A stretch of 64,000 nt of DNA from positions 1 through 64,000 of IMG/VR virus record IMGVR_UViG_3300042691_034899; one strand, given 5' to 3'. Under the pieces are notes generated by a model. The model was given only the letters and a program-made list of their open reading frames with translations, did not search any database and was not told the origin of the DNA. Both the position numbers and the translations under genes were made by a program. This DNA comes from a virus. Positions 12,685 through 61,811 of the stretch are shown piece by piece. Positions within the stretch are counted from its first letter, which is position 1. Every line of letters begins with the position of its first letter.

Positions 12685-15453
12685 TTAATTTTTGTTTATC
12701 TCGGCTATGTACTCTTTGCTTTTTCTGTCCATAACTCTCTCTTGAATCTTTTGAGCCTCTAGCTTGAGTTTCTCCATCTTCAATGCCATTTCAGAATTCA
12801 TTTTCTTTTCCTTCTGATTGTAATCTCTTGTCGCTACTTCGTTTTTAAAATTAAGCTCGTTCTCTTTCATAGCAAGATCTGCTTGCTTATTAATCTGCTC
12901 GAATCCAGCTGCATCAGATTGTTTATCTGAAGCTCTACCAAGAGCATTAATTCTTTGCTTATTAAGTTCGTTTTCTCTATCTCTTTGTTTACTTTCTTCT
13001 TCTCTATCAAACTTAGCTTGTTCAGCTTGCTCTTGCATTTGAGCTTTTTGCATTTCAGCTTGCTGTTGTTGCTGGAATTGCGCTTGCTCTTGCTCTGCTC
13101 TTCTTTCTTGAGCCATTCTTGCTATTTCAACAGCTTCAGAGAATTCATCAGATCCGATTAACTTAGCTATTTCTAAAGTATCGGTTCCTAATGTATTTGT
13201 TTGTAGTAAATAAGTTTTGAATTGCTCAAGCTCTTTCCTCTTCTTAGAATCAGAAGATGCTATAAGTCCTATTCTTCTAAATGGAAACTCTGGATCAGTG
13301 AACTTTAAATACTCTATACTTGCGTCAGATTTCGTATAATATAGGGTAATATCTTTTTTATTAGATTGACAATACTGTGCTACAGATAAATGTAATTCAT
13401 ATGTAGCTTTTATATACTGTTCAAAGTTTTCGTAGATTTCAGAAATCTGTGCGAAAGTAGCTTCTTGACTTTGTTTAACTCCTTCAGCAGTTTCGTATTT
13501 TGTAGGAGCTTGAAGAATCTGTGGATTTATACCAATAATCTCGTAAGCTTTTCTTTGAGAAAATTCTGCTAATCTAATTCTATCATTTAACTGACTTGAA
13601 TAAGATAAGTTATAGCTTGATACTTGATTAAAGTTTGTAGGATTTCTTTGCCCATCTTGAGATGTTGCAATAGGTAAGATTCCAGTATCCTTTGCAATAT
13701 TACGCATTGCGATAAGGGCTTCTTGAGCATCTCCCCATCCATCAAATTCAGATGGGATCATTGCTGTATCAAGTAAGAAGAATACACCAATCTCTTTTTC
13801 AAGCATAGAGTATATCTGATTCATACAAAGATTATACTTTGCTTGGTATGGCTCTATCTTCTTAGCTTGTGACTGTCCAATATATCCTGCAACTGGAAGC
13901 CATCTATCAAATTCACTTTCTCCTTTAATCTGATGTTCAGAAGGTCTACAATATAAATATAATGGTCTAACTAAATTCTCTGATTGAATTTTAACTCCTT
14001 CATATACAACTGGCCTATAAGTCCACTGAAGCGTATTAGGTTTAAAATCAGTTACTATCTTTACAAGTTGAGTCTTGTAAGTTTGTTTAATGTTATTATC
14101 TTTTAAAAATTGTGGAAGAATGTCCTCTGTAACTTCCTCAGTTATAATCCTTCCTGTTTCAGAATCTTCATACGTAAGATAACCCCAAAGTTCGTAAGCT
14201 CTGAAATATACTTCAGTTACTTGACAAAGATCAAGTCTTTGCTTAAAGTCATCTCGCATTATTCTTGCGTAGTAACTATATCTACCATGGTAATCTCCCA
14301 TTAATCTTGGAAGGAATCTATCTCTTTCAGATGTAGTTCCATCTGGGTTGAATATAGTCTGAATACCCATAGGTACTCCAGTTTCTTCCTGAAGTCCTAA
14401 ATAGAAGTTATAATCAAAGTAGTTTGCAAATGGGACTCTTACTTGTTTATTAAAGTTACTTTGAATAGACTCTTCAACTGTACCTGTATAGTAACCATCT
14501 CCTACAAAGCTTTTCCATGCTTCATTTCCACCTAATAGTTCTTTCTGATCCTTTGCACTTATCTCGTGACCGTATCTTCTAATAACTTCAGCAGGTGTCC
14601 AGAAGTTCAACCTTCCAACATATTCACCTTTATGCACCATTTCAGCCTCAACCTCTCTTGAGAAAAATGTATTTTTTGCACTCCAGGATTCTGGCTCATA
14701 ATCATCGTATCCCATTCTAAAATGCCTAAAGCATCTACCAGATGTTAAATGATCTTTTAATTCTTGCCTTTCTAGTTTTGAAAAATTAAATCTTTCTTTG
14801 TCTCTTTCAAGAGTAGCTTCTCCCCATTGCATACCAATGGTCTTAAACTTTTTCTTAGAAGATTGTACTGTATCTTTTGGAGTAAACTCTTCAGTAGCTC
14901 TTTGAAGCTGCTCCATATATTGTGCTTGCTCTTCTTCAGATTCAAATTCTTTTCCTTCTTTTGAGAATCCGTTTTTAGCAAGATGCATATCAACTGTATT
15001 CTGAATAACCTTTTTAATAAGGTCCTGAATTTCGTTGTTTTTATGTCTTAAGAAATCATTCTCGGCAACTTCTCCTGTATCTGTTACGTGGAATTTTGGC
15101 TGCATAGAACTATAATAACCAACTAACGCATTGATTACTATTCCAATAATATCGTAATGTTTTAAGAAAGATGGGACACCTACTCCATCAAGAAGACTCT
15201 GAATATCCTTCATGTGAGGTGCGACTTCAGATAACTCCTGGTAGGACAATTTGCCATCTACCATTCTGTAAAGATCTATAAACTGAAGGTTGTCTTTAAA
15301 CTGCTCAATAGCCTCAAATTCAAAAGAATCTAGAACAGCTTCTTGCCACTCCTTAGACTCTTTTACCTTTTTAGGTACAGTCATAGGAGGCAAGTTATCT
15401 GACTTGTATATTCTAGAAAAAATAGTTGTCGGACTAGATCCAATATATCCCAT
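12685..15453 (-). CDS. Portal protein
   Basis: 922 aa after the terminase; long C-terminal Q/E coiled coil typical of crAss-like portals. Confidence 0.75.
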   Translation of the reverse strand: MGYIGSSPTTIFSRIYKSDNLPPMTVPKKVKESKEWQEAVLDSFEFEAIEQFKDNLQFIDLYRMVDGKLSYQELSEVAPHMKDIQSLLDGVGVPSFLKHYDIIGIVINALVGYYSSMQPKFHVTDTGEVAENDFLRHKNNEIQDLIKKVIQNTVDMHLAKNGFSKEGKEFESEEEQAQYMEQLQRATEEFTPKDTVQSSKKKFKTIGMQWGEATLERDKERFNFSKLERQELKDHLTSGRCFRHFRMGYDDYEPESWSAKNTFFSREVEAEMVHKGEYVGRLNFWTPAEVIRRYGHEISAKDQKELLGGNEAWKSFVGDGYYTGTVEESIQSNFNKQVRVPFANYFDYNFYLGLQEETGVPMGIQTIFNPDGTTSERDRFLPRLMGDYHGRYSYYARIMRDDFKQRLDLCQVTEVYFRAYELWGYLTYEDSETGRIITEEVTEDILPQFLKDNNIKQTYKTQLVKIVTDFKPNTLQWTYRPVVYEGVKIQSENLVRPLYLYCRPSEHQIKGESEFDRWLPVAGYIGQSQAKKIEPYQAKYNLCMNQIYSMLEKEIGVFFLLDTAMIPSEFDGWGDAQEALIAMRNIAKDTGILPIATSQDGQRNPTNFNQVSSYNLSYSSQLNDRIRLAEFSQRKAYEIIGINPQILQAPTKYETAEGVKQSQEATFAQISEIYENFEQYIKATYELHLSVAQYCQSNKKDITLYYTKSDASIEYLKFTDPEFPFRRIGLIASSDSKKRKELEQFKTYLLQTNTLGTDTLEIAKLIGSDEFSEAVEIARMAQERRAEQEQAQFQQQQQAEMQKAQMQEQAEQAKFDREEESKQRDRENELNKQRINALGRASDKQSDAAGFEQINKQADLAMKENELNFKNEVATRDYNQKEKKMNSEMALKMEKLKLEAQKIQERVMDRKSKEYIAEINKN

Positions 15454-15509: not shown

Positions 15510-17573
15510 CTAATACTTCTTACCTCTTGTCATTCCATATCTATTGTTTCCAAGTAAAAGCTCTCTTTTCCTCTCTTCTTTCTGATCAAACTTTTCCCTC
15601 TTTATCTGTTTTTCTGGAAGTATGTTTAATTTATCAAGCTCTCTAGCGTAAACTAAAGCGTGAGAAAATGCTGTAATGCGGTCAAAGTTACCTCCTTTAT
15701 ACCAGTTTGACATTTCCTTAAGTAAATCAATATCATCTATAAACTCAACGCCAAGTTTTATTATTGGGTTGCCATCGTCATCTATACCAACTGTATGCTC
15801 TTCCTTACAATAATCTACAAGTACATTGAATCTATACTGATTATTACCTGCATTTGGATAGAGACCAAACTTAGAGTTTAATGATGGCTTCTTCTTACTT
15901 GTAAGCCCTGAAAAAGATATAGCTGGAGCAAGAATATCATACTCTCTTCCTTTTTGTTCCAAGTACTGCTTGAAACTCATATCTATACTTTCCATTAAAC
16001 ACTCTGCATTCCATACATCAGAAAGCTTTTCACATATCTGATTGAAATCTCTTTGTCTATCTGGTCTTGATGTATAAGCTGCAGCTATAGTTTCACAAGG
16101 TTCATTGGGGGATAAATTTCTTCTTTTAATTACGTAAAAAGATCCTAATGAGTCTGTTTCAGAAGTGTCTAATTTATAGGAGTCAAGCCCTGATACAAAC
16201 GTACCCCTAGGTGGTGGCCCGTCTTCTGGGAAATGAGAAAACAATACAACTGGAGCGTCAATATTACCTCCTGGATGAGATACAGATGCTCTTTTTTTAT
16301 TTACTAGCTCATATTTAAACTTACCTGCATTATCTCTAAATACTCCTATATCTTTTCCAATCTTACCAGTGTCTTCTAGATATCTTATGTGTCTATCTAT
16401 TACTGAAACTGGAAATGGGTTATTGCTATTTGTCAAGAAACAATCAGCTGTTTCAAGAGGATAGTACATCTGGTTTTTCTGCCGATCCTCTTCTTTTTTT
16501 AATGATTTATTTCTATGTTTTATTACCTCTGTTGCTTCTGTCCAATTGGTTACATTTATTTTGATAGAGTCTAGATCTTTACTTTGTATTCCTAAAAATT
16601 CAGATAATTTTTTATTTTCCTTTTCAACTGATAAACGATAACTCATTTGACCTGGAACAAACATTGCAAAATTACTCTTCTTACTCCTTGTCCATGTTAT
16701 GGCCTCTTCAGGCACACTTCTGTCAAGTCTATCCCAATTCATCATCAGTAGATCATAGGCTTCTGGATCAGATAAAATATCTTTTGCGTCTTGAGAAAGC
16801 TCTTTATTACCACCTGTTCCTGATAGTAAATGCACAAGTTTCTGACCATACTGAGTTCTAAATGAAGGCAAAGCAGCATTTAATGGTCCCTTACAATCGA
16901 ACTTACCTATCTCATCCATAATGTAGCCTACAGGAGATAAACCAGCACTTTTTTCAGATTCCTTCTTACTACCCCTATTTACGTTTCTTATAGCGATTTG
17001 AGAATGCACATATCTGTGACCAGTCTTTTCTTTAAGTCCAAATTCTACAAATGAATCCCAATCAGTTACAAGCCTAGGAAGTTGAAGTGCAGGATGTACG
17101 TTATTGAAATGTCTTTCTAGAAGTGCGGATATTGCTTGTAAGTCACCGTCTGATCCTCCGACTATCGATGTAACACCATTTGTTCGAATTGTATTTAGCC
17201 AGGAAGTTAAAGAGGCTAACGATGTTGATTTAGCAAAACCACGAGTTCCGAAAAGACAAAGTCCTTTTCCTTCTTTTTCCGCTTGCTGATAACTTTCAAC
17301 TACATACATGAAGTTGTCATCAAGTGGTGGACACATTATCTTCTCTTCTTTATTCTTTAGTGGAATAGGGGTCTTAAAATAATTTAAATGGTAATACAAC
17401 CAAGGGTGTACGAAAAAACCTCCTATGTATACACCATTGGTTATTTTTGATTTTTCTTCCTCAAAAAATTTTATAACATCTGAGGATTGTTCAAAATAAT
17501 GCTTTCTTGGGTTATACACAGGAGGCTTATTCATATTTATGAACATCTCCTTACTACTGAGAATACTTGACAT
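15510..17573 (-). CDS. terL: Terminase large subunit
   Basis: Walker A-like GTRGFAKS, Walker B YIMDEIGK, motif III SGTGG, nuclease acidic residues (GLDSY, DSLGS, NFDR). Confidence 0.85.
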   Translation of the reverse strand: MSSILSSKEMFINMNKPPVYNPRKHYFEQSSDVIKFFEEEKSKITNGVYIGGFFVHPWLYYHLNYFKTPIPLKNKEEKIMCPPLDDNFMYVVESYQQAEKEGKGLCLFGTRGFAKSTSLASLTSWLNTIRTNGVTSIVGGSDGDLQAISALLERHFNNVHPALQLPRLVTDWDSFVEFGLKEKTGHRYVHSQIAIRNVNRGSKKESEKSAGLSPVGYIMDEIGKFDCKGPLNAALPSFRTQYGQKLVHLLSGTGGNKELSQDAKDILSDPEAYDLLMMNWDRLDRSVPEEAITWTRSKKSNFAMFVPGQMSYRLSVEKENKKLSEFLGIQSKDLDSIKINVTNWTEATEVIKHRNKSLKKEEDRQKNQMYYPLETADCFLTNSNNPFPVSVIDRHIRYLEDTGKIGKDIGVFRDNAGKFKYELVNKKRASVSHPGGNIDAPVVLFSHFPEDGPPPRGTFVSGLDSYKLDTSETDSLGSFYVIKRRNLSPNEPCETIAAAYTSRPDRQRDFNQICEKLSDVWNAECLMESIDMSFKQYLEQKGREYDILAPAISFSGLTSKKKPSLNSKFGLYPNAGNNQYRFNVLVDYCKEEHTVGIDDDGNPIIKLGVEFIDDIDLLKEMSNWYKGGNFDRITAFSHALVYARELDKLNILPEKQIKREKFDQKEERKRELLLGNNRYGMTRGKKY

Positions 17574-19382: not shown

Positions 19383-19800
19383 TTGTACTATTTACAACTT
19401 GAAATAAAAACATCATGTTTGAATCACCACTGCTATGGACGTATTCCTGTAGCTTCACTAAATCTTTATGCAAATGATTAATCCTTGTATTCATAGGATC
19501 CTTTACAAGATAGTCGTTGTGACGCAGTTCTAAATTCATTGAATTTATAGCAGGTTTTTTCACATTTAAGATTTTAGCTGCCTTTTCTTTAGTTGAGCTA
19601 TTGTACCCATACTTTATGTACAATGCTAAGAGCAATATTAACTTCTCTCTTAGTACATTTGATGTTACTCCACACACTCTTCTATGACAAGAGAATAAAT
19701 AAATTATTTTCTTTAGGCCATCAATCTCGTCATCTTTTACTATATCTGGTGCTAGATATATATTTGGGCCAGTGTTTTTACGTTCTATTTGATCTTCCAA
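19366..19800 (-). CDS. Hypothetical protein, possible wHTH
   Basis: 144 aa; KAAKILNVKKPAINSMNLEL is HTH-like. Confidence 0.5.
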   Translation of the reverse strand: MEDQIERKNTGPNIYLAPDIVKDDEIDGLKKIIYLFSCHRRVCGVTSNVLREKLILLLALYIKYGYNSSTKEKAAKILNVKKPAINSMNLELRHNDYLVKDPMNTRINHLHKDLVKLQEYVHSSGDSNMMFLFQVVNSTNAKAN

Positions 19801-19909
19801 TTGAGTTAGTTTTTAGAAAATTTGCATAAAGAAATATAATATTTTCTAATTATCCAAATAAATAACAATTTTTAACATTATTTTTACATAAAAATACAAA
19901 CATAAGAAT

Positions 19910-19917
19910 TAATTTTG
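19910..19917 (+). promoter_or_regulatory. Bacteroidota -7 promoter element 4 nt before ATG
   Basis: TAATTTTG-atat-ATG(19922). Confidence 0.5.
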
Positions 19918-19921
19918 ATAT

Positions 19922-20152
19922 ATGGAAGAAATAATTCAAACTGAAGAAGAATATTTTTACAAAATCTTCAATACGATATCGGAAAGTATAATTACTGATG
20001 AGTACTTTGATAAAAATGATAAGCTACTAAGTAGTATATCAAGTTCCCTATATGACATTAATATCATAACTGAAGGTAAAATGCCGCCAGAGCTTGGTAG
20101 AAGAGTTATTGAAGAGGTATTCTCAAATGTATTCAAACACGGTATACGTTAA
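19922..20152 (+). CDS. Hypothetical protein
   Basis: 76 aa, first gene of the divergent plus-strand block. Confidence 0.55.
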   Translation: MEEIIQTEEEYFYKIFNTISESIITDEYFDKNDKLLSSISSSLYDINIITEGKMPPELGRRVIEEVFSNVFKHGIR

Positions 20153-20168
20153 ATTTTTCCAAAAAGTA

Positions 20169-20200
20169 TTTGCAGATATTTACTTTTCTGTTTATATTTG
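20169..20200 (+). promoter_or_regulatory. Bacteroidota sigma-A promoter
   Basis: TTTGCA...TATATTTG with no ORF downstream for ~390 nt. Confidence 0.6.
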
Positions 20201-20204
20201 CGGT

Positions 20205-20535
20205 TATATTCGTAAAAAAGTATAAAAAACATAGTGTGTTTTAGATTCAGTTTTGACACGTACAACTCAAAACTACGACTAATAGGGAACTATTCGGCAA
20301 AATAAAAAGCTCAGCTCTGCAACGCCTGCAACTGAGTCCAGCAGACCTTCGGGGGGATCGCCAGAATAGATACAAAAAAGCCATAGCAATTTGAAATTTT
20401 TAAAAATTGCTGAATAAATAAGAAATTGGTACTGGTAGTAGAGTGTCCCTTATTGGTTTAGTAACATAGTTTCTATGTGAAAATCTGGCGGGAGGGATTC
20501 TGCTGGTAATAAGGCGAAGCTATGCATTATAGGTA
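20205..20535 (+). ncRNA. Candidate structured ncRNA, family unknown
   Basis: GC-enriched intergenic stretch with several hairpins (UUCG, GGAA loops) and long-range pairs CCAGCAGA/TCTGCTGG and CGCCAGA/TCTGGCG. Confidence 0.5.
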
Positions 20536-20573
20536 AATTTTTCGTAAAATTTTAATTACTCGAAAAGTTTCAT

Positions 20574-20581
20574 TAAATTTG
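20574..20581 (+). promoter_or_regulatory. -7 promoter element for recA
   Basis: TAAATTTG, 14 nt before ATG. Confidence 0.5.
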
Positions 20582-20595
20582 TAAAAAACCATAAA

Positions 20596-21573
20596 ATGAG
20601 TATATCTAAAGAATCTTTAAGTAAGCTTCAAAAACTATTTGGAAAAGAAGCAGTTATGACTTTAAACGAGTCGATTAATCTTGACATTGAACTCCTATCA
20701 TCTGGATCTCTATTCTTGAACCACGCTTTAGGCGGAGGATTCCCTATGGGAAGAATCATTGAGATAGCTGGCCCAGAGTCTTCAGGAAAAACAACTCTAG
20801 CTATTCACGCTATTTCAGAAGCGCAAAAAGTTGGAAAGAACTGTGCGATGATTGATGCTGAGCATGCATTCGATAAAGTCTATGCAGAAAACTTAGGCGT
20901 GAATACAGACGAGCTTCTAATCTCTCAACCTGATACAGGAGAACAAGCTCTTGACATAGTGGAAGCAATGATTGATACTGGAGAGGTTCAGCTAATTGTA
21001 ATTGACTCTACCTCATCCCTTGTACCTAGAGCAGAGCTAGAAGGTGAAATGGGTGACTCAGCTGTAGGACTACAAGCTAGGCTATTATCAAAAGCTTTAA
21101 GAAAGTTGACAGGAAAAGCAAAGAAAAATAATTGTCTTCTTATTTTCATATCTCAGTTGAGAGAAAAAATTGGAGTTATGTACGGATCGCCAGAAGTTAT
21201 CGGAGTTGGTAATGCGCTTAAATTCTATGCCTCTCAGCGGATTATTGTAAGAAAGTCTACTCAAGTTAGTGGAAAAGATGGCAACGGACCAGAGGGCAAT
21301 CTAACTAAAGCTAAAGTTATTAAGAATAAAATCGCTCCTCCATTTAGAGAAGCTGAGTACACAATCAAATACGGAAAAGGTATTGACAAAGATGGCGAGC
21401 TTATTGACTTAGGAGTTGAAATGAATATCATAGAAAAATCTGGATCTTGGTATTCTTACCAAGGATCTAAATTAGGTCAAGGTAAAGAGAATTCACTTGC
21501 TTTACTTTTAGACAATCCAGAGCTTATGGAAGAGATTAGAGGACTTGTTGAAAAGGGACTTGCCAATCAATAA
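20596..21573 (+). CDS. recA: RecA recombinase
   Basis: [35 protein letters not shown] and KNKIAPPF motifs. Confidence 0.97.
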
Positions 21574-21584
21574 ATCAAATCTAT

Positions 21585-22013
21585 ATGTGGATATTTGAAA
21601 ATAAACCTGTAAATTCTATTGATGATATAGACCCAAAAGCAATTGGGTTTATATACATCATAGTAGATGAAGATGGTAGGGAGTATGTTGGGCAGAAGTC
21701 TTTATATTCAAAAAGAAAGCGAAAGTTTGGTAAGAGAGAAGCTGCAGCTATCACTGATAAGAGAAAGAAGACTTATGAGTATATTGTAAAAGAATCTGAT
21801 TGGCTTACTTATACTGGATCAAACAAAGAACTTAATGAAAAAATAAAAGAGGGTATTAAGTTTACAAAGCACATCCTAAAACTTTGCTACAATAAGAAGC
21901 AATTATCTTACTATGAAACAAAATATCTTATGATTAGAGAATCAATTGAGCCTGGGAATATGTCATACAATGGAAATATCTTAGGTAAGTTTTATCCTAA
22001 AGATTTACTATGA
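21585..22013 (+). CDS. GIY-YIG-like (Seg-type) endonuclease family protein
   Basis: GFIYII...YVGQK...W..YTGS...YN.NI pattern. Confidence 0.6.
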   Translation: MWIFENKPVNSIDDIDPKAIGFIYIIVDEDGREYVGQKSLYSKRKRKFGKREAAAITDKRKKTYEYIVKESDWLTYTGSNKELNEKIKEGIKFTKHILKLCYNKKQLSYYETKYLMIRESIEPGNMSYNGNILGKFYPKDLL

Positions 22014-23935: not shown

Positions 23936-25507
23936 ATGAGAAAATATCATAAATATGACAACGATCTAATTGAGGATCTTTGTAAAAAACAACCTGAAGA
24001 CAACTTCAATTTAACAGATGTAGCTAAAAGGTATTGTAAAAAGAAGGATATAGACTTCTCTGTCTATATAGCTAGAAGCATTCAAAAAATTGTTGCAAAT
24101 AATAACTTTAATGTTTCAAACGTAAAACCTTTAAAATCTAAAGCTTATACAGCAGCTGTAAAAAGAAAGTTTAAAAGTAAGAAATCAAACTATATTGTTA
24201 CTTGGGCTCAAGCTCATACTCCAATAGATGAAAATCTATGGAACAATATCAAAGTATACGCTGAATATCACAATGCTGATATTATAGTTATGCCAGGAAC
24301 TTACCTAAATAATAATTCAGTTTTCACAAAACGAGTTGAGGTATGGGATTCTGAATTAGTTGATTACTTATACGCTACAGAAGCATCTGTACACAATCAT
24401 CTAACAATGATACCAGATGCTGATATTATACCAACTGCAGAAAGACCACTACTTGGATTATTTAGTGTAACTGGAATTGAAAGCTGTATCATTGGACATC
24501 CAAGACAACACATGGACATTGTACCTACAATGAAAAATTCAAGAAGGAAGTTCATGTTTACAACTGGGTCAATTACTGTTCCTAATTACAGAAAGTCAAG
24601 AGTAGGTAAGAAGGCTAAAGTCCATCACAAGATGGGTTTTCTTTTTGTTGAAAATCTAAATGAGGATAATTTTACAGCTAGACACGTACATGCAGATGAC
24701 GATGGTTCATTTACAGATCTAGTATTTTCAGTTTCAAATGGTAAAGTATCATTTGAGAAGAGCTGGGAAGCAATGGTATTTGGTGATACTCATTTATCAA
24801 AAGAGGATCCAAAAATGCTAGAAGAATCAAAAAGGTTGTGTAAATTAGCAAACTGTAAAAGAACAATATGGCATGACCTTGCAGATGGGTACTCTATAAA
24901 TCCACATCAAGAGAAAGACTATGTTGAACAAGTTGTAAAAGCAAAGAAAGGTTTAAACAGTCTTGAAGAAGAACTAAATAGAAGTGTGGAGTTCTTAAAT
25001 GGATGGTTAGATTATAATCCAGTAATAATTCCAAGTAATCACAACGATTGGATTGACAAATGGGTTAGATTCAATAGAGGATCAAAAGATATTAACAATG
25101 CTATGATATTCAATAGATTTCAAAATATTCTATTTGAAGAGAAGGCTCCAAAAGGACTCTATGCATATGTTCTAGAAGAGACTTTTGGAGATAGTATTAC
25201 TTGTTTATCAAGAGATGATTCTTATGAAGTTTGTGGAATAGAGCTTAATAATCATGGAGATCTTGGATCTAATGGAGCAAAAGGAACTCCAACAACATTT
25301 GCAAAACTTAACACTCCAGTTGTATCAGGAGATAAGCATTACCCATATACACTAGATAATGCACATGGAGTTGGTCTATCATCTGTACTAGATCACAAGT
25401 ATAATAGAGGTATGTCTAGTTGGGCTCAGAGTAATGGTATAATTTTACCAAACGGAAGATTCCAACACTTACTTTATTTCGATGGTAAATTCACTAATTT
25501 AATTTAA
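23936..25507 (+). CDS. Large phage metallophosphoesterase-like protein
   Basis: GDTH, HDLADG, SNHNDW, HGD and GDKH calcineurin-like motifs. Confidence 0.7.
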   Translation: MRKYHKYDNDLIEDLCKKQPEDNFNLTDVAKRYCKKKDIDFSVYIARSIQKIVANNNFNVSNVKPLKSKAYTAAVKRKFKSKKSNYIVTWAQAHTPIDENLWNNIKVYAEYHNADIIVMPGTYLNNNSVFTKRVEVWDSELVDYLYATEASVHNHLTMIPDADIIPTAERPLLGLFSVTGIESCIIGHPRQHMDIVPTMKNSRRKFMFTTGSITVPNYRKSRVGKKAKVHHKMGFLFVENLNEDNFTARHVHADDDGSFTDLVFSVSNGKVSFEKSWEAMVFGDTHLSKEDPKMLEESKRLCKLANCKRTIWHDLADGYSINPHQEKDYVEQVVKAKKGLNSLEEELNRSVEFLNGWLDYNPVIIPSNHNDWIDKWVRFNRGSKDINNAMIFNRFQNILFEEKAPKGLYAYVLEETFGDSITCLSRDDSYEVCGIELNNHGDLGSNGAKGTPTTFAKLNTPVVSGDKHYPYTLDNAHGVGLSSVLDHKYNRGMSSWAQSNGIILPNGRFQHLLYFDGKFTNLI

Positions 25508-25518
25508 ATAAAACCAAT

Positions 25519-27108
25519 ATGTCAAAACAAATTATTTTTAACAAGGAAGCAAGAGAAAAGCTTTTATCAGGTGCTGATAAATTAGCTGATGCCGTAAGAG
25601 TTACCCTTGGAGCTAAGGGTAGAAATGTTATGATTGGAGAAGGCATGCACTCAGCGTTTGTTACTAATGATGGTGTAACAGTTGCTAGAGCTGTAGAACT
25701 TGATGATCCAATTGAAAATATTGGTGCGTATTTCTTAAAAGAAGCTGCATCAAAAACAGAGGAAATGGCAGGAGATGGTACAACTACTTGTACAATACTA
25801 ACTCATTCGATGCTTAAATTAGGGATGAAGTATCTAGCCGCCGATGCAAATCCGATGGATTTAAAAAGAGGAATGCACAAAACGCTAGAAAAACTTGTGT
25901 CAATGATTGATAAAGATTCTAAGAAGATCAGTATTAATAGTGATGAGTTACGACATGTAGCCACAATATCTGCTAACAATGATCCATTTATTGGAGACTT
26001 AATTGCAGAAGCTATTCATAGAGTAGGTAAATCTGGTATTGTATCTGTTGAGCAATCAACAAATATGGAAACTAGAATTGAAGTTGTTGAGGGTACTGAA
26101 TTTGACAAGGGTTACATTCACCCCTACTTTATGACAAATGTAGAGAAGGAAAGAGCCGAGTTAGATAATGTATATGTCTTAGTTACTGATCACAAGATTT
26201 TTAGTATGCGTGAACTTCTTCCTATACTAGAAAAAGTTGGAAGAAGCAAACCCCTATTGATTATCTCTGACGAGATTGACTCTAATGTTGTTCCAACTAT
26301 TATCTTGAATCACACACAGGGTATTGTAAATGTATGCTGTGTAAAAGCTCCAGGATTTGGAGACACAAGAGTAAGTATGCTTGAAGACATTGCAGCTATT
26401 ACAGGTGCAGAACTTATCTCATCAAGTAAGAGTATGAAACTTGAGGATGTTACATTAGAAATGCTTGGGTATGCTACTAAGGTTAACGTATCAAAAGATA
26501 GAACTACAATCATTGATGGCAACGGAGATGCAGATATTATTGAAGCAAGAATCAAACAAATAGAAAGCCTTATTCAAACTGAGGACGATGCATATGCAAA
26601 AGATAAACTTCAAGAAAGATTGGGTAGACTAACTGGAGGAGCTGCAGTCTTATTTGTTGGAGGGACAACAGAGACAGAAATGGAAGAGAAGAAGTATAGA
26701 GTAGATGATGCTTTATCTGCTACTAAAGCTGCTCTTGAAGAGGGTATTGTTCCAGGTGGTGGAGTAGAACTTGCTGTAGTTGGTCACAAATTCAATAAGG
26801 AAGCCTCAGACATCTTTTTAAATGACGATGAAAGACTTGGTGCAGAAATAGTTTTAAAGTCTCTTAGAGAGCCTCTATATCAAATTCTTAAGAATGCTGG
26901 AATCAGTGGAGATAAAATCTATACTGATATCTGCGAAAGTGAAAGTGGAAAGATGGGTTATGATCTAAATAAGGATCAGTATGTTGACATGCTAGAAGCA
27001 GGTATTGTAGATCCAGCAAAAGTAACTAAAGCTGCATTGATGAATTCAACATCAATTGCATCAATGATATTAACAACAGAAGCTATAATCGCTAAAAAAC
27101 CAGAATAG
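25519..27108 (+). CDS. groEL: Chaperonin GroEL
   Basis: VTLGAKGRNV, TNDGVTVA, GDGTTT, KAPGFGD and EGIVPGGG motifs; no GGM tail. Confidence 0.97.
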   Translation: MSKQIIFNKEAREKLLSGADKLADAVRVTLGAKGRNVMIGEGMHSAFVTNDGVTVARAVELDDPIENIGAYFLKEAASKTEEMAGDGTTTCTILTHSMLKLGMKYLAADANPMDLKRGMHKTLEKLVSMIDKDSKKISINSDELRHVATISANNDPFIGDLIAEAIHRVGKSGIVSVEQSTNMETRIEVVEGTEFDKGYIHPYFMTNVEKERAELDNVYVLVTDHKIFSMRELLPILEKVGRSKPLLIISDEIDSNVVPTIILNHTQGIVNVCCVKAPGFGDTRVSMLEDIAAITGAELISSSKSMKLEDVTLEMLGYATKVNVSKDRTTIIDGNGDADIIEARIKQIESLIQTEDDAYAKDKLQERLGRLTGGAAVLFVGGTTETEMEEKKYRVDDALSATKAALEEGIVPGGGVELAVVGHKFNKEASDIFLNDDERLGAEIVLKSLREPLYQILKNAGISGDKIYTDICESESGKMGYDLNKDQYVDMLEAGIVDPAKVTKAALMNSTSIASMILTTEAIIAKKPE

Positions 27109-28967: not shown

Positions 28968-29366
28968 TTAATTAGACAACATAGAAGAGACTCTAGACCT
29001 AGATTTCTCCCCTATTGGAATTGGATAACCACCCTCATCTATATGTACAAATTTAATATGTGTTTTTAGAACCACAACTTGTTTACCTGTATATACATTA
29101 TGAGCTCTTGCCTCCATGTATAAATTTATAGAAGAGTTACCTATTGATTGTGGATAACCGTATATTTTAATTAGCTGTCCTTCACGAGCTGGCTTTTCAA
29201 AATTACATTTATCAATTGATACTGTAACCATTCTAGGTGTATCACAAAGCTGCATTGCATAACCTGCTGCTGAAGCATCAATCCATGCTAAAAGTTTTCC
29301 ACCGAATAGGTTACCATGAAAACCTAAATCGGATTTTTTAATTGGGTGTGAGTTTAATAATTCCAT
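28968..29366 (-). CDS. Acyl-CoA thioesterase (HotDog, YciA-like)
   Basis: HGNLFGGKLLAWID and VTVSID..F.KP motifs. Confidence 0.85.
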   Translation of the reverse strand: MELLNSHPIKKSDLGFHGNLFGGKLLAWIDASAAGYAMQLCDTPRMVTVSIDKCNFEKPAREGQLIKIYGYPQSIGNSSINLYMEARAHNVYTGKQVVVLKTHIKFVHIDEGGYPIPIGEKSRSRVSSMLSN

Positions 29367-30400
29367 TAATTTGATAAAGGTGCTTTAATATGTGGATGTG
29401 ATTTATAATCTTCAATCAGAAAATCTTGTACCTCAATATATTCTATTTGTCCTAGTATGTCTGAATCGGGATTCCAGAATTCATCATTAATAGTTAATGA
29501 ACATAATGAATAAGGTTCCCTACTGATTTGTTCTTTAGCTTGATCTACGTGGTTTAAGTATAAATGTGTATCACCTAAATTACCAATTAATTCATCAGGA
29601 ACCATGTTAACTTCTTTTGCAATTATTTCAAGAAGCAGCCCATATGACGCTATATTAAATGGCAAACCAAGAAATGTATCTACCGAACGTTGATTCCACA
29701 TTAGAGAAATAGCTCTGTATTTTCCTGGATTAGTAATCTTTTCCTCTCTAGTTGTTGGTCTTGTATAAAATTGAAAATCAGTATGACATGGTGGAAGTGT
29801 CATTTGGCCCAATTCACCAACATTCCAAGCCGAAACTTTATTACGTCTAGAATCTGGATCTGTTTTAAGTAAGTGGATTGAGTTTGCGATTTGATCATAC
29901 TTTGGGACTTTTTTAAAATCGGTCTCCATTCCATGATTCCATCCAGTAGGTACTTTATGGAACCCTCCCCAACTTCTCCATTGAGCTCCATAAATAGGAC
30001 CTAATTCACCCCACTTCTTAGCAAACTCTTCATCAAGCTTTATCGCTTTTTCGAAGTCTTCTTTTGACAACTTTGGTATTGTACTAAATGGTGAAGTTTC
30101 ATTTGCTTTATCATTCCATTCACAATACTTCTTATATGCATCCCCCATCCAGATGTTACAATCATTCTCAATAAGGTACTTAATGTTTGTATCTCCACGT
30201 AAGAACCAAAGAAGCTCTGCTACTACACCTTTCCAATAAACTTTTTTTGTAGTTAAGATTGGGAACCCTTCTGACATCTTGTGTCTAATCTGTCTTCCAA
30301 ATACTGATAAGGTTCCAGTACCAGTTCGGTCTTCTTTCCTAATACCATTATCTAGGATATCCTGTAAAAGTTCTTGGTACTGTTTATCTAGATTGTTCAT
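29366..30400 (-). CDS. thyA: Thymidylate synthase
   Basis: DRTGTGT, ELLWF, LGPIYG.QWR, LPPCH, QRSVD.FLGLPFN and GDTHLY motifs. Confidence 0.97.
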   Translation of the reverse strand: MNNLDKQYQELLQDILDNGIRKEDRTGTGTLSVFGRQIRHKMSEGFPILTTKKVYWKGVVAELLWFLRGDTNIKYLIENDCNIWMGDAYKKYCEWNDKANETSPFSTIPKLSKEDFEKAIKLDEEFAKKWGELGPIYGAQWRSWGGFHKVPTGWNHGMETDFKKVPKYDQIANSIHLLKTDPDSRRNKVSAWNVGELGQMTLPPCHTDFQFYTRPTTREEKITNPGKYRAISLMWNQRSVDTFLGLPFNIASYGLLLEIIAKEVNMVPDELIGNLGDTHLYLNHVDQAKEQISREPYSLCSLTINDEFWNPDSDILGQIEYIEVQDFLIEDYKSHPHIKAPLSN

Positions 30401-51372: not shown

Positions 51373-51446
51373 GGTCCCGTAGCTCAGCTGGATAGAGCAA
51401 CTGCCTTCTAAGCAGTAGGTCACACGTTCGAATCGTGTCGGGATCA
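51373..51446 (+). tRNA. tRNA-Arg (anticodon UCU)
   Basis: Cloverleaf with acceptor GGTCCCG/CGGGATC, anticodon arm ACTGC-CT-TCT-AA-GCAGT, GTTCGAAT T-loop; CCA not encoded. Confidence 0.95.
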
Positions 51447-51449
51447 CAG

Positions 51450-51612: not shown

Positions 51613-51686
51613 GGATCTGTAACTCAGTTGGTTAGAGTGCAACACTCATAATGTTGAAGTCCTTGGTTCGAGCCCAAGCCGATCCA
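51613..51686 (+). tRNA. tRNA-Met or Ile2 (anticodon CAU)
   Basis: Cloverleaf with CAACA-CT-CAT-AA-TGTTG and GTTCGAG T-loop; one acceptor-stem mismatch. Confidence 0.9.
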
Positions 51687-51689
51687 CAA

Positions 51690-56592: not shown

Positions 56593-57570
56593 ATGGGGAT
56601 TTTTGATAAGAGAGTTAGTTACAAACCTTTCGAGTATTCTCACATAACAGATCCGTTGATCGATGCTATGTGGGCGAGTCATTGGACTCACAATGAATTT
56701 AATTTTAAGAACGATGTTCAGGACTTTAAGACAAGGCTTACTGATCAAGAAAGAGGAGTAGTAAAGAGAGCTATTCTTTTGACTTCTCAAGTAGAGGTAG
56801 CTGTAAAATCTTATTGGTCTAACATTGGAAGAGTTCTTCCAAAGCCTGAGATATCTGACTTAGGTGCAGTGTTCGGTGGTGTTGAAGTGATTCATTCAAG
56901 AGCCTATGCAGAGATTTTGTCTAAGCTAGGATTAGAAAATGAATTTGATACACTATTCTCAGAGCCAGTTGTAAAAGGTAGAGTGGATTATCTTTCTAAG
57001 TATGTGAATAAAATCTACAAAGATGACAAGAAGAATATAGTATATTCATTAATCTTATTCACATTATTTACGGAGTACTGCGCTTTATTCTCTCAGTTCT
57101 ACACCATACTTGGGTTCAATAGATTTAGAGGTATACTAAAAGATGTATCTAACATTGTACAGTATACTTCAAAAGAAGAGAATCTACATGCTGAAGGTGG
57201 TATGGCATTGATTAATCAAATACGTGAAGAGCATCCAGAAGTATTTGATGAAGAGCTTACTAGTAAAATTTACTCAGAAGTTCAAGAAGCGTTCACGGCT
57301 GAGTCTAATCTTATTGATTGGATTTTGCAAGGGTACGAAAATGAATTCCTATCTCAAGATATACTAGAGGGGTATATTAAAAGAAGGATGAATGAATGCC
57401 TATCAAAAATAGGTTTTGAAAAACAATTTGAAATTCCTTCCAATATTATTGAGGAAACTAATTGGATGGAGGAAGAGGTATATGCTTCAGCTATGACAGA
57501 TTTCTTTCATAAGAAGCCTATAGACTATGCGAAAAAAACAAAAGTATTTAACGAAGAAGAATTATTTTAA
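56593..57570 (+). CDS. nrdB: Ribonucleotide reductase class I beta subunit (class Id-like)
   Basis: EVAVK, EVIHSRAY, FTE and EENLH ligand motifs; DFF..KP..Y tail. Confidence 0.93.
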   Translation: MGIFDKRVSYKPFEYSHITDPLIDAMWASHWTHNEFNFKNDVQDFKTRLTDQERGVVKRAILLTSQVEVAVKSYWSNIGRVLPKPEISDLGAVFGGVEVIHSRAYAEILSKLGLENEFDTLFSEPVVKGRVDYLSKYVNKIYKDDKKNIVYSLILFTLFTEYCALFSQFYTILGFNRFRGILKDVSNIVQYTSKEENLHAEGGMALINQIREEHPEVFDEELTSKIYSEVQEAFTAESNLIDWILQGYENEFLSQDILEGYIKRRMNECLSKIGFEKQFEIPSNIIEETNWMEEEVYASAMTDFFHKKPIDYAKKTKVFNEEELF

Positions 57571-57571
57571 A

Positions 57572-59218
57572 ATGGAAAACTTTTATTGGCTTAACGAAGA
57601 ATCAAGAAAATTTTTAAATGAAGGCTATCTTTTACCTGGTGTTACTCCAGAAGATAGAATCAGACAAATAGCTGATACAGCTGAACGAATAATGGGTATT
57701 AACGGATTCTCAGATAAGTTCTACGGATATATGGCAAAGGGCTTTTACTCTTTAGCTACTCCAGTATGGATGAACTTTGGACTAGACAGAGGCCTACCTA
57801 TATCGTGTTATGGGATTGACATTCAAGATGACACAGCGGATATTGTAAGAGCTGCTGCTGAGATTGGAATGCTTACAAAACATGGTGGGGGTACTGCTGG
57901 ATTCTTTGGCAAACTTCGTCACAGAGGAGCTCTAATTAAAAGCAATGGGGTATCTAATGGTCCTATATCTTTTATGGAGTTGTTCCAATCAGCTACGAAT
58001 GTTATCACACAAGGTCAAGCAAGGAGAGGTTACTTTGCTGCTTACCTAAACATTGATCATCCAGACATTGAGGAGTTCCTGAAGTGTAGAGAAGAAGGTC
58101 ACCCAATCCAAGACATAGCATTAGCTGTAACTATCCCAGACTATTGGATGCAAGAGATGATTGATGGAGATAAAGGCAAGAGAGCTATAATGGCAAAGGT
58201 ACACAAGAAGAGATCTGAAACTGGATTCCCTTACATATTCTTTTCTGATAATGTAGATAAAGATAAGCCTCAAGTGTATAAGGATAAAGACTTAAAGATT
58301 AATCACAGTCAAATGTGTTCTGAGATAATCGAGTACACTGATGATGAAAAAACATTTGTTTGTTGTTTATCCTCTTTGAACTTAGTTCATTGGGATGAGA
58401 TTAAAGAGACAGATGCAATTGAAACTCTAACTATATTCCTTGATGCTGTATATACAGAGTTTATTGAAAAGGCAGAAGGTATACCATTCTTTGAGAAGGC
58501 CGTAAAATTTGCAAAGGAACATAGAAGTATTGGTCTTGGTGTTTTAGGATGGCATAGTTTCTTGCAATCTAAAATGATTCCTTTTGAAGGTATGGAAGCT
58601 ATGTATCTCAATGCGGAAATCTTCAAGACTATTAATGAAAGAAGCTTAGAGACAAGTAAAAAACTAGCCATATTTTATGGAGAGCCTGAGATGCTTAAAG
58701 GATACGATGAGAGATTCACAACAAGAGTTGCTATTGCTCCTACTACTTCATCAAGTTTTATCTTAGGTCAGGTGTCTCCATCAATTGAGCCGTTGCATTC
58801 TAATTACTTTTTGAAAGACTTAGCTAAAGGTAAATTCTCGTATAAGAATCCTTACTTAGAAGAGCTACTTAAAAACAAAGGACTAGATACTCCAGAAACT
58901 TGGAAAAGTATTATGGTTAAGGGTGGATCTGTTCAGCACCTAGAGGGTCTGACAAAAGAAGAGAAGGATGTATTCAAAACATTCGGAGAGATAAGTCAGA
59001 TGGAAATTGTAAAACAAGCAGCTCAAAGACAGAAATGGATAGATCAGGCTCAGTCATTGAATCTTATGATTCATCCAGACGTTCCGTTAAAGGATGTTAA
59101 TGCTTTGCTTATTGAAGCTTGGAAGCTTGGACTTAAAACACTATATTACCAAAGGAGTGTAAATATTGCACAACAAGTATCAAGAGATATTTTGTCTTGT
59201 GCATCTTGCGAGGCGTAA
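57572..59218 (+). CDS. nrdA: Ribonucleotide reductase class I alpha subunit (no ATP cone)
   Basis: ATP..N.G...ISC, SQMCSEI, CCLSS, APTTSSS, KTLYY and C-terminal CASCE; ATG at 57572. Confidence 0.93.
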   Translation: MENFYWLNEESRKFLNEGYLLPGVTPEDRIRQIADTAERIMGINGFSDKFYGYMAKGFYSLATPVWMNFGLDRGLPISCYGIDIQDDTADIVRAAAEIGMLTKHGGGTAGFFGKLRHRGALIKSNGVSNGPISFMELFQSATNVITQGQARRGYFAAYLNIDHPDIEEFLKCREEGHPIQDIALAVTIPDYWMQEMIDGDKGKRAIMAKVHKKRSETGFPYIFFSDNVDKDKPQVYKDKDLKINHSQMCSEIIEYTDDEKTFVCCLSSLNLVHWDEIKETDAIETLTIFLDAVYTEFIEKAEGIPFFEKAVKFAKEHRSIGLGVLGWHSFLQSKMIPFEGMEAMYLNAEIFKTINERSLETSKKLAIFYGEPEMLKGYDERFTTRVAIAPTTSSSFILGQVSPSIEPLHSNYFLKDLAKGKFSYKNPYLEELLKNKGLDTPETWKSIMVKGGSVQHLEGLTKEEKDVFKTFGEISQMEIVKQAAQRQKWIDQAQSLNLMIHPDVPLKDVNALLIEAWKLGLKTLYYQRSVNIAQQVSRDILSCASCEA

Positions 59219-59241
59219 CTCACCTCCAAATTCCCCCAGGA

Positions 59242-59269
59242 GCCCTCACATTTTGTGGGGGCTTTTTTT
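59242..59269 (+). terminator. Intrinsic terminator
   Basis: GCCCTCACA-ttt-TGTGGGGGC-T7. Confidence 0.75.
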
Positions 59270-59301
59270 GTTTAGCCAAATTTTTTCATTATATTTGCAA
59301 T

Positions 59302-59850
59302 ATGCTAGACAAGAAAGTACAAGACCACATTGATTTGGTCATACCTCCAGCAAAAAAGGAGTTAAAGTTTATAAAAGAACAAAACTGGTCTGAGATATCG
59401 CATCTTGGTAAGAGGGAAAGTATGTATAACCTTCAGTCAATTCTTAATGAAAGGAACATAAATGCTTTGGTAAAACTGTACAACCTTGCAGAAGAAGATT
59501 TAGGTCATCCAGAAGTTAGGAAGTCTATAAAGATTCTTTTGGAATTCTACTACATACTAGAAAAAAGGTATCAAAATGTTGACAAGAAGTTTGACTGGAC
59601 AAAGTTTGATCAAAGTGAAAAGGACATTGAAAAGAAGATGGCCGATGAGATTGAATTTCAATCAGGAGTTCTGAAAGACCTATCAAGATTTAAAGAGAAC
59701 TTACGTAAAATAAATTTCGGTGAGGAGTCTAACGATTTAGATATTCCTATTCACTCAGATAAACCAATACCAGTTATTATGGCAGAGTCTGTCGAAGCTA
59801 GGTATCCAGAGATAAGGGAATTTATTAACAAAAAGCTGACTCAAAAATGA
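59302..59850 (+). CDS. Hypothetical protein
   Basis: Start moved to ATG 59302, 4 nt after TATATTTG. Confidence 0.6.
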   Translation: MLDKKVQDHIDLVIPPAKKELKFIKEQNWSEISHLGKRESMYNLQSILNERNINALVKLYNLAEEDLGHPEVRKSIKILLEFYYILEKRYQNVDKKFDWTKFDQSEKDIEKKMADEIEFQSGVLKDLSRFKENLRKINFGEESNDLDIPIHSDKPIPVIMAESVEARYPEIREFINKKLTQK

Positions 59851-61259: not shown

Positions 61260-61284
61260 AAAAAGCCCCCTAAAATTGGGGGCC
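61260..61284. terminator. Terminator at convergence point
   Basis: A-run then GCCCCC-taaaatt-GGGGGC. Confidence 0.65.
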
Positions 61285-61335
61285 TAAAACAATGCAGTAA
61301 ACAGATTCTAATAACACAAACAAATATACAAAAAA

Positions 61336-61761
61336 TTATTGGAATATCTCGTTATTTTTTCTTAAGAATTCAAAAAGTTCTTCAGTAACAAGACCCGTTC
61401 CATCTGGATGTGGATCATGCCACAACTCTCCATTCCTATAAATACACACATGGTCAAAGCCTCTATAGCTTTCTCCTATTACTAGGTAGTAACTATTGTC
61501 AAACTGATGACCGTTTAGTGATCCCCAATCATACCCTCTTTCCTGTAGCCATAATGATAAAACAAGAACCCATTTAACATCGGCTTCATCATCTGAAAAA
61601 TGTTCTTGTATTTGAATACAATCTTCGGGGCTTTCTAAGTCCAGGAAACATGCTATAGCTGCAGCGTATGAATTCTCCCTTGTCTTTACATCGTCCCAAA
61701 GGTGATTTAAGACTGAATCTACTCTTGTCTGTACCATCTTCTTCATAAGAGAATTTTTCAC
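61336..61761 (-). CDS. Hypothetical phage protein
   Basis: A.IAC.L.L...G.S.RG..H..IY..G.L.HDPHP pattern. Confidence 0.6.
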   Translation of the reverse strand: MKNSLMKKMVQTRVDSVLNHLWDDVKTRENSYAAAIACFLDLESPEDCIQIQEHFSDDEADVKWVLVLSLWLQERGYDWGSLNGHQFDNSYYLVIGESYRGFDHVCIYRNGELWHDPHPDGTGLVTEELFEFLRKNNEIFQ

Positions 61762-61811
61762 TAATTTAAAAATCTATATTCACAATTCCAAAAAAGTTAA
61801 TTGATTTGTAA

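Follow-up and report, generated by a model that had tools for sequence, protein, structure and literature searches.

A candidate structured RNA of about 300 nucleotides upstream of recA in a small lineage of freshwater phages

A promoter-led stretch between a small gene and recA

The window analysed here is a stretch of 64,000 nucleotides (nt), positions 1 to 64,000 of the 80.8-kb IMG/VR virus record IMGVR_UViG_3300042691_034899, in which a 443-nt gap separates an open reading frame (ORF) of 76 amino acids (aa) from recA. A sequence-only reading had proposed that this gap, between 20,205 and 20,535, houses a promoter-driven RNA with long-range and crossing pairings. Comparison with two homologous loci, on the contigs L002 and L135, narrowed the candidate to a core of 297 nt on the plus strand and points to a conserved fold closed by a terminal stem and carrying two pseudoknots. 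The locus is arranged as follows.

19922 to 20152, plus strand: 76-aa ORF, immediately upstream of the RNA in every homologous locus
20169 to 20200, plus strand: Bacteroidota-type promoter, consisting of a -33 TTTG (20169 to 20172), a 20-nt gap and a -7 box TATATTTG (20193 to 20200)
20201 to 20228, plus strand: poorly conserved 5' leader between the promoter and the closing stem P1
20229 to 20525, plus strand: candidate structured RNA core, 297 nt, delimited by homologue matches, covariation, strain conservation and the lack of an open frame
20526 to 20595, plus strand: AU-rich spacer, GC 0.171, containing the -7-like box of recA, TAAATTTG (20574 to 20581)
20596 to 21573, plus strand: recA (Pfam RecA, E-value 4e-109), the next gene downstream in three of three loci

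The region is non-coding. At least four stops interrupt every frame of the core in the window, and none of the three homologous sequences (window, L002 and L135) has a frame that stays open across it. The GC fraction of the core is 0.394, compared with 0.211 and 0.171 in the two flanks. The promoter motif is conserved, with a -7 box ahead of the RNA that is identical in all three loci and conforms to the TTTG/TAnnTTTG motif that we take to be the Bacteroidota promoter consensus; the full -33/-7 pattern, in the form TTTG-N17-21-TAnnTTTG, was counted 12 times in the window against 3.1 expected. A scan for sigma-70 promoters, which are not the relevant type here, gave a result no higher than shuffled sequence. 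In the window and L002 the promoter and the fold are separated by an unconserved leader of ~25 nt; in the window, strains differ within it at 20209 and 20211 and show an indel at 20224. The leader of L135 is only ~8 nt long, this being the distance from the end of its -7 box to P1, so that transcription there would start at the fold itself. A second -7-like box is located 14–17 nt before the recA ATG in each locus, reading TAAATTTG in the window, TATATTTG at the same place in L002 and TATTTTTA, with one mismatch, in L135.

The sequence-only reading had named a consensus promoter at 20193 with no ORF behind it, a separate -7 element for recA, a stretch richer in GC than its surroundings and the lack of a recognisable RNA family, and each of these descriptions holds. 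Its placement of the RNA at the divergence of the morphogenesis and replication genes does not, as that divergence is situated at ~19800–19920 and the 76-aa gene lies between it and the RNA.

Known families were searched for using the 4227 models of Rfam 15, which presumably include GOLLD, ROOL, OLE, raiA, HEARO, pRNA, 6S, RNase P, tmRNA, the group I intron, riboswitches, CRISPR-DR and tracrRNA. At gathering thresholds over the whole window only two tRNAs were returned, at ~51.4 and 51.6 kb, while between 20100 and 20650 with E-values up to 10 allowed there were three junk matches of 9–16 bits against cut-offs of 48–51, none of them to a CRISPR-DR or tracrRNA family. ARAGORN found no tmRNA in the window, only a tRNA-Arg and a tRNA-Met elsewhere in it; these phage genes, tRNA-Arg(TCT) and tRNA-Met(CAT), occupy 51373–51447 and 51613–51687. 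Nothing matching the RNA was present in Rfam 15 or in the literature searches. A 2023 survey of IMG/VR reports more than 10,000 unnamed candidate structured RNAs (PMC10690425); the text of that survey makes no mention of recA, Bacteroidetes or Flavobacteria, and the RNA might be among the unnamed candidates in its supplementary tables.

Full homologues of the core were found at two loci only, both upstream of a phage recA. The first, L002, lies in a complete phage genome of 124 kb that has terminal repeats, and matched the core in nhmmer and covariance model searches with an E-value of 1e-99. The second, L135, lies on a 28-kb contig that encodes the RecA P0012 and matched with an E-value of 6e-37. 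Both share the order of small ORF, promoter, RNA, ~70-nt spacer and recA. The core is 77% identical to that of the window in L002 and 65% in L135. The corresponding values are 78% and 68% for recA over all positions, 53% and 44% for recA third codon positions, 65% and 47% for the spacer to recA, and 60% and 34% for the promoter and leader between the ORF stop and P1 (20153–20228). The most conserved part lies around 20238–20273, where 47 nt are identical between the window and L002. At the protein level the 76-aa ORF has counterparts with 84% (L002) and 41% (L135) aa identity, and the recA product is 88% identical in L002 and 70% identical in P0012.

A predicted fold with two crossing pairings

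The helices were set by comparing the three sequences and scored on a MAFFT alignment, A3. The resulting model comprises 69 pairs in 11 helices, whose elements are listed below with the number of pairs in which both bases change while pairing is kept (two-sided changes, counted on A3 unless stated otherwise).

20230 to 20243 with 20510 to 20524, plus strand: P1, closing stem of 12 pairs, 97.2% of cells paired
20249 to 20274, plus strand: H2, hairpin with an 8-bp stem and a 10-nt loop, stem invariant in three of three sequences
20260 to 20263 with 20429 to 20432, plus strand: PK2, candidate pseudoknot of the H2 loop GUAC with a second GUAC, one two-sided change
20277 to 20288 with 20446 to 20458, plus strand: H3, 12 pairs and one bulge, 100% paired, four two-sided changes and one G-U to A-U
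20290 to 20295 with 20364 to 20369, plus strand: H4, CUAUUC with GAAUAG, three two-sided changes
20296 to 20309, plus strand: A-rich variable linker, with a 2-nt deletion in L002
20310 to 20336, plus strand: H5, hairpin of 5 + 4 pairs, 100% paired, 1 + 2 two-sided changes
20338 to 20350 with 20492 to 20506, plus strand: H6, crossing helix, all eight core pairs paired, one two-sided change, with one G-C becoming A-U in both homologues
20385 to 20411, plus strand: H7, hairpin of variable length, one two-sided change; when anchored, five of five pairs in three of three sequences, four of the five two-sided
20412 to 20445, plus strand: conserved, mostly unpaired A-rich strand containing the PK2 target (alignment A6)
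20464 to 20478, plus strand: H8, hairpin of 4–5 pairs, flanked by conserved AGUA and GAA

Across the alignment, 95.6% of the pair cells were paired, compared with 34–42% when the 3' partners were slid by 1–3 columns, and 13 pairs changed on both sides, compared with 0–4 in the slid controls. MAFFT misplaces gaps in the two variable hairpins, H7 and H8, and hand-anchoring of these on their flanking conserved motifs gave 18 two-sided changes. For a set of three sequences this is strong evidence, and together with the strain-level conservation described below the compensatory changes argue that the fold is under selection. The same comparison speaks to the strand. On the minus strand only 86.8% of the cells would be paired, with 18 G-U cells becoming mismatches there, and the strand predicted to fold is thus the strand of the promoter.

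The clearest case is H4, which reads CUAUUC/GAAUAG in the window, CUCUCU/AGAGAG in L002 and CUCUUC/GGAGAG in L135, where all six pairs form under alignment A5 and the covariance model. H3 is modelled as stacking on H4, and enclosed within H4 are the A-rich linker, H5 and the 5' strand of H6. The 3' partner of H6 lies at 20492–20506 and H6 therefore crosses both H4 and H3 as a pseudoknot. Beyond its core, H6 is extended by 4–5 pairs in three of three sequences across a bulge of 2, 4 or 5 nt. The second predicted pseudoknot, PK2, reads GGAC/GUCC in L135, and its 20431 A>C is the sole change in an otherwise conserved surrounding block. The A-rich strand that contains this target is the same at 31 of 34 positions in the window and L002 and at 25 of 34 in all three sequences, as counted by eye on A6. 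The H2 loop takes part in PK2, and the H2 stem, being invariant, provides no evidence for or against its pairing. In P1 there are three one-sided, wobble-compatible changes and one pair lost in L135. Relative to the window, H7 lacks 12 nt in L002 and is extended in L135. When anchored, H8 shows two of five pairs changed on both sides and one A-U to G-U, with only one terminal pair in L135 unpaired; the AGUA and GAA flanking it might form a loop-E-like motif. A third pseudoknot, between the CGCC of the H5 loop and GGCG at 20487–20490, was considered and left out of the model, given mismatches in two of three sequences against one two-sided change.

The segment 20498–20506 has two mutually exclusive partners. 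It can pair with 20338–20345, as in H6, or locally with 20485–20493, and both arrangements show consistent changes, the local 3' hairpin having 26 of 27 cells paired with one two-sided and several one-sided changes. The conformational switch that the sequence-only reading offered as an alternative is thus conceivable. Duplex energies for the window, L002 and L135 were -20.8, -19.5 and -14.6 kcal/mol for H6, compared with -9.9, -10.5 and -8.6 kcal/mol for the local hairpin, such that H6 is 6–11 kcal/mol more stable in all three sequences. The local hairpin could be an intermediate of folding or a second conformation, or could arise incidentally from two strands that both have to match one partner.

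Of ten helices that had been drawn from the single sequence, six recur in the homologues. The helix AGTTTTGA/TCAAAACT is kept and invariant, CTCAG/CTGAG, CCAGCAGA/TCTGCTGG and ACTAATAGGGA/TCCCTTATTGGT are likewise kept, AGCAATTT/AAATTGCT persists for its basal five pairs and ACATAG/CTATGT for 4–5 pairs. The remaining four are not conserved. AATAG/CTATT gives way to H3 and H4, CC-TTCG-GG is replaced by the H6 extension, CGCCAGA/TCTGGCG is disrupted in L002 and L135 as well as in the common strain haplotype (20363 A>T, 20490 G>A), and CATAGC (20382)/GCTATG is lost because GCUAUG pairs with the 5' end instead. P1, H4, the H6 extension and the H2-loop pseudoknot are additions of the present comparison. 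The wider proposal, a novel promoter-driven non-coding phage RNA with long-range and crossing pairings, is supported by the covariation in two homologues, in which 13–18 pairs change on both sides, by the strain conservation and by the lack of an Rfam match.

Strain variants were read from metagenome contigs of four sequencing runs. In run X13 the contig spanning the core (20229–20533) carried five differences and one gap in 305 nt, compared with 37 differences in 409 nt upstream (19850–20258) and 12 in 162 nt downstream (20546–20707), and strain-level conservation of the core exceeds that of the neighbouring genes. No listed core variant disrupts a supported helix. The variants 20362 C>T and 20363 A>T sit in a variable linker, and 20490 G>A affects a linker or, if the alternative hairpin forms, a pair that changes from G-U to A-U. 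Four X13 variants keep the five-pair H8 stem, 20464 A>G by making an A-U into a G-U and 20469 G>T, 20471 T>C and 20473 C>T by lying at its tip. Deletions of 1 nt at 20304 and 20309 are confined to the A-rich linker; at this same site L135 has a 14-nt extra hairpin of five pairs and a 4-nt loop (L135:2691–2704). The metagenome contigs end at the core edges, and a contig of run X20 shares 20160–20193, the promoter, and then continues into different sequence upstream of 20160. These contig breaks, taken with the X20 junction, suggest that promoter plus RNA behaves as a module, which can have another upstream neighbour in some strains.

Gene neighbourhood, distribution and distant relatives

Beyond the small ORF and recA, the neighbouring genes are as follows.

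12685 to 15453, minus strand: portal gene, left of the RNA
15510 to 17573, minus strand: large terminase gene, left of the RNA, followed by five small genes
21585 to 22013, plus strand: gene of a SegE-like GIY-YIG homing endonuclease, right after recA (Pfam PF19835, E-value 1e-22)

The portal and terminase genes are within 3 kb of the RNA. The 76-aa ORF upstream has no Pfam or PHROG match. Further to the right, at 23936–27108, are a homologue of a 'DNA transfer protein' (PHROG 1745) and a full-length GroEL-type chaperonin (PHROG 5725, E-value 2e-159), and genes for a thioesterase, thymidylate synthase, the small and large chains of ribonucleotide reductase, a superfamily 2 helicase and a family A DNA polymerase are distributed over 28968–30400 and 56593–63749. 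Among 37 ORF queries, 27 of which were run against Pfam and 10 against PHROGs, there was no reverse transcriptase, Cas, TnpB, Ro or RNA ligase, and no IscB-, IsrB- or TnpB-like gene was seen nearby or among the scanned ORFs. The nearest cellular RecAs are proteins from metagenome-assembled genomes (MAGs) of Flavobacteriales, with ~62–64% identity, and the phage promoters and RecA point to Flavobacteriales-type hosts. The RNA is known from three contigs and ~20 sequencing runs, the runs containing the stretch being lake, freshwater, lagoon and river metagenomes together with some labelled 'fungus metagenome', which may represent the source sample.

Several searches define how narrowly the RNA is distributed. 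Distant blastn against GenBank phages gave no match. Only L002 carries the RNA among 52 viral contig loci gathered by RecA, and among the matches listed for metagenome RecA loci (at least 80) only L055 was close, being the same contig as L002; the remaining metagenome RecAs in those matches were 55–59% identical and were taken as cellular. The RecA P0019, used as the query, yielded no closer relative among the matches listed (at least 80 loci). In the protein database there are ~20 further phage-type RecAs with 59–96% identity, which come from Logan, ENA and JGI; the RecA relatives in that database include P0001–P0007 at 88–96%, P0009–P0015 at ~70% and P0016–P0022 at ~66%. The covariance model R1, built on the 5' domain only, was searched against 49 whole viral records (L016 not included), 89 + 79 further loci, and G000, G050 and G051, with filters off for five sources, and matched only the three known copies. 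Weak R1 matches in L106, which falls in a coding region, and in L161, which had been seeded by a pattern, were judged to be chance. Three DNA patterns run over the IMG/VR viral contigs recovered only the two known records.

Other candidates were set aside. Several other RecA loci have upstream gaps of ~440 nt with no sequence relation to the RNA. The group tested, L011, L015, L028 and L043, gave a poor consensus fold of -12.5 kcal/mol and has TATAAT-type promoters. A 24-nt pattern taken from H2 was found at 10 sites in 185,579 species genomes, in unrelated contexts and as single sites, against ~4 expected by estimate. A hairpin-like 24-mer with ~60 nt of shared flank was also seen at the ends of three contigs of one Blastocatellia MAG (L155:7127–7150, L157:6192–6215 and L160:41–64); it resembles a dispersed repeat at which the assembly stops, and has nothing in common with the phage RNA apart from the pattern used for the search.

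Two distant relatives, L251 and L252, emerged when the aligned 76-aa ORF was used as the query; they have the same gene order and proteins 25–45% identical to those of the window, with RecA at 43% and the small ORF at 32%. A counterpart of the GIY-YIG endonuclease also follows recA in L251 (45% identity). Between the small ORF and recA both relatives have 615–650 nt of non-coding DNA (L251:2711–3357 and L252:2723–3337), which begins behind a TATTTTTG box in L251 and a TACTTTTG box in L252. Within it a block of ~235 nt is ~97% identical between the two, too alike for covariation to be read, and the remainder is much less so. The stretch has no detectable similarity to the window RNA and no Rfam match, and its fold z-score is -2.0. 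Possibly it is a structured RNA too, of a second class that occupies this slot. The presence of non-coding DNA at the same place indicates that the slot, if not the sequence, is conserved across the phage family.

Interpretation and comparison with known systems

Taken together, the evidence favours 20229–20525 on the plus strand as the gene of a stand-alone RNA of ~300 nt, of an undescribed class, carried by a small lineage of freshwater phages, produced from its own promoter and acting in trans, and we place the probability of this reading at roughly 0.6. The RNA would be transcribed from its own TAnnTTTG promoter and would have its 3' end near P1. The predicted product is a compact body closed by P1, with the hairpins H2, H5, H7 and H8 inside, a long-range H3-H4 stack crossed by the 12–13-bp H6, and a second pseudoknot in which the H2 loop meets the conserved A-rich strand. 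Terminal stems that join both ends are a feature of stable processed RNAs, and P1 is placed to do so. With two pseudoknots in a closed body and conserved strands left unpaired, the modelled structure suggests a binder or a self-acting molecule rather than a leader. Such a stable folded RNA could serve in trans as a protein-binding or self-associating scaffold or as a catalytic RNA, and would be made alongside the replication and recombination genes, not as a recA leader.

A number of observations weigh against this reading. The three full sequences amount to two independent contrasts only, and P1 and H2 are without two-sided covariation. The structure was derived from the same sequences on which it was scored, so that the shuffle counts, in which 0 of 500 shuffles reached the observed values for four of five measures, are not probabilities. 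As a single sequence the core folds modestly better than shuffles, with a z-score of -2.7 and two of 200 shuffles folding as well; for the 331 nt first proposed the z-scores were -2.2 on the plus and -1.6 on the minus strand. Two to three of the core-contig differences in X13 and X20 have no listed position. No partner protein stands out among the scanned ORFs. Among the listed sequencing runs none of RNA type has the stretch, and the sole metatranscriptome, X22, has next to none of it. The position of the RNA, ~70 nt ahead of recA in three of three loci with no terminator-like site, fits a cis role as well.

That role, a riboswitch-like or protein-binding leader of recA in which a ligand or protein would shift the balance between H6 and the local 3' hairpin in a read-through transcript, is unlikely. 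The RNA and recA are on the same strand at a constant spacing, and a simple consensus search, which may miss Bacteroidota terminators, returned 0 terminator-like sites in 19800–20800. The two exclusive partners of 20498–20506 show consistent changes in both states, those of the local hairpin including several from G-U to A-U, the strain variant 20490 G>A among them, and a long non-coding stretch is likewise present at this position in L251 and L252. There is also a precedent in phage T4 gene 32, described in the IMG/VR survey as autoregulated via an upstream pseudoknot (PMC10690425). Against a leader, recA has its own -7-like box inside the spacer, which is the least conserved segment and shows no structure overlapping the recA start, and P1 closes the fold with no recognisable expression platform, whether a terminator or a start-sequestering helix. 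The advantage of H6 over the local hairpin in three of three sequences also speaks against a leader. Finally, the size of the RNA and its two pseudoknots exceed the needs of known protein-binding leaders.

A bolder version of the trans reading is doubtful. It would make the RNA the founding member of a class of compact phage RNAs that have two pseudoknots and work by themselves, here as a ribozyme or as a particle that assembles from RNA only, as GOLLD and ROOL do, the H2 loop pairing with a separate molecule. Freshwater Bacteroidota phages would employ it in replication, recombination or packaging, and the unrelated L251 and L252 stretch would be a second such class in the same slot.

An origin of replication, either through a structured primer or R-loop transcript of the kind known from ColE1 RNA II and the T4 origins or through hairpins in single-stranded DNA, is suggested by position only and appears improbable. 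The RNA lies ~430 nt from the divergence of leftward genes (terminase, portal) and rightward genes (recA, replication), GC skew changes sign at ~20 kb, there is a promoter but no ORF, and the flanks are very AT-rich (GC 0.17–0.21). However, GC skew flips with every flip in gene orientation (20, 28, 34 and 62 kb) and therefore tracks transcription and is no evidence of an origin. The 18 G-U cells fit one strand only, and two covarying pseudoknots suggest a tertiary fold, typical of RNA and not of DNA hairpins. No tandem repeats were seen on reading the stretch, although no repeat finder was run.

A decoy for host CRISPR-Cas or another RNA-binding defence protein, in which a solitary repeat is held in a scaffold like an RNA anti-CRISPR, is very improbable. 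It draws on the 36 nt at 20238–20273, starting with GTTTTAGA and ending with CAAAAC, which lie in the most conserved part of the RNA and which we take to resemble type II-A CRISPR repeats in length and termini, a likeness assumed rather than computed. This segment forms part of P1 and H2 within a conserved fold of far greater extent, Rfam gave no CRISPR-DR or tracrRNA score at E-values up to 10, and the 24-nt pattern occurs in bacterial genomes as single sites at about chance rate, not in arrays. Type II systems of Bacteroidota are moreover mostly II-C, with other repeats. Chance pairings in an AT-rich spacer, conserved through recent common descent, would suit the modest single-sequence z-scores and the small number of sequences but are already disfavoured and scarcely credible, given that conservation of the core far exceeds that of recA third codon positions, the adjacent spacers and the strain flanks and that all of the two-sided changes keep pairing.

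To our knowledge it is rare to find a new structured RNA of this size that has two covarying pseudoknots. Such RNAs with a function established later include ribozymes, riboswitches and ribonucleoprotein cores, and freshwater Bacteroidota have been little explored for RNA biology. The fixed place next to recA, with a different non-coding filling in the relatives, hints at a recurring and so far unrecognised RNA function in the early module, albeit within a narrow phage lineage. At 297 nt the RNA is small enough for chemical probing, crystallography or cryo-electron microscopy.

The RNA has no Rfam match to the known systems with which it can be compared. It shares with riboswitches and the T4 gene 32 operator a location upstream of a recombination gene on the same strand, pseudoknots and a possible alternative 3' pairing, and differs in the promoter-like recA box that lies between, the lack of an expression platform and the lack of any riboswitch model match; the gene 32 operator is also much smaller. 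The raiA-motif RNA and the HEARO or omega RNAs (~200–300 nt, with pseudoknots) are similar in size, complexity and possession of their own transcription unit. The present RNA is accompanied by no IscB-, IsrB- or TnpB-like gene, either nearby or among the ORFs scanned, and with a 5' end that is conserved and not variable it does not look like a guide. The phi29 pRNA is likewise a phage-encoded, promoter-driven small structured RNA, here matched by an element within 3 kb of terminase and portal genes, and on the model a loop of the present RNA pairs with a distant complementary site and could in principle do so between molecules. It is about twice the size of pRNA and belongs to a large phage (124 kb in the complete relative) with a large terminase, not phi29-type packaging. 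GOLLD- and ROOL-type RNAs are larger, with sizes of ~580–800 nt, whereas the present RNA has 297 nt and is known from three contigs and ~20 sequencing runs. GOLLD, ROOL and OLE are reported to form homo-oligomeric RNA-only complexes (PMC12286853). The architecture of the RNA is nonetheless of the GOLLD and ROOL kind, being non-coding and phage-borne, on a virus contig with terminase and portal genes, with a covarying multi-helix fold in which the crossing helix H6 and the pseudoknot PK2 each show a two-sided change, and lake metagenomes are a source of both.

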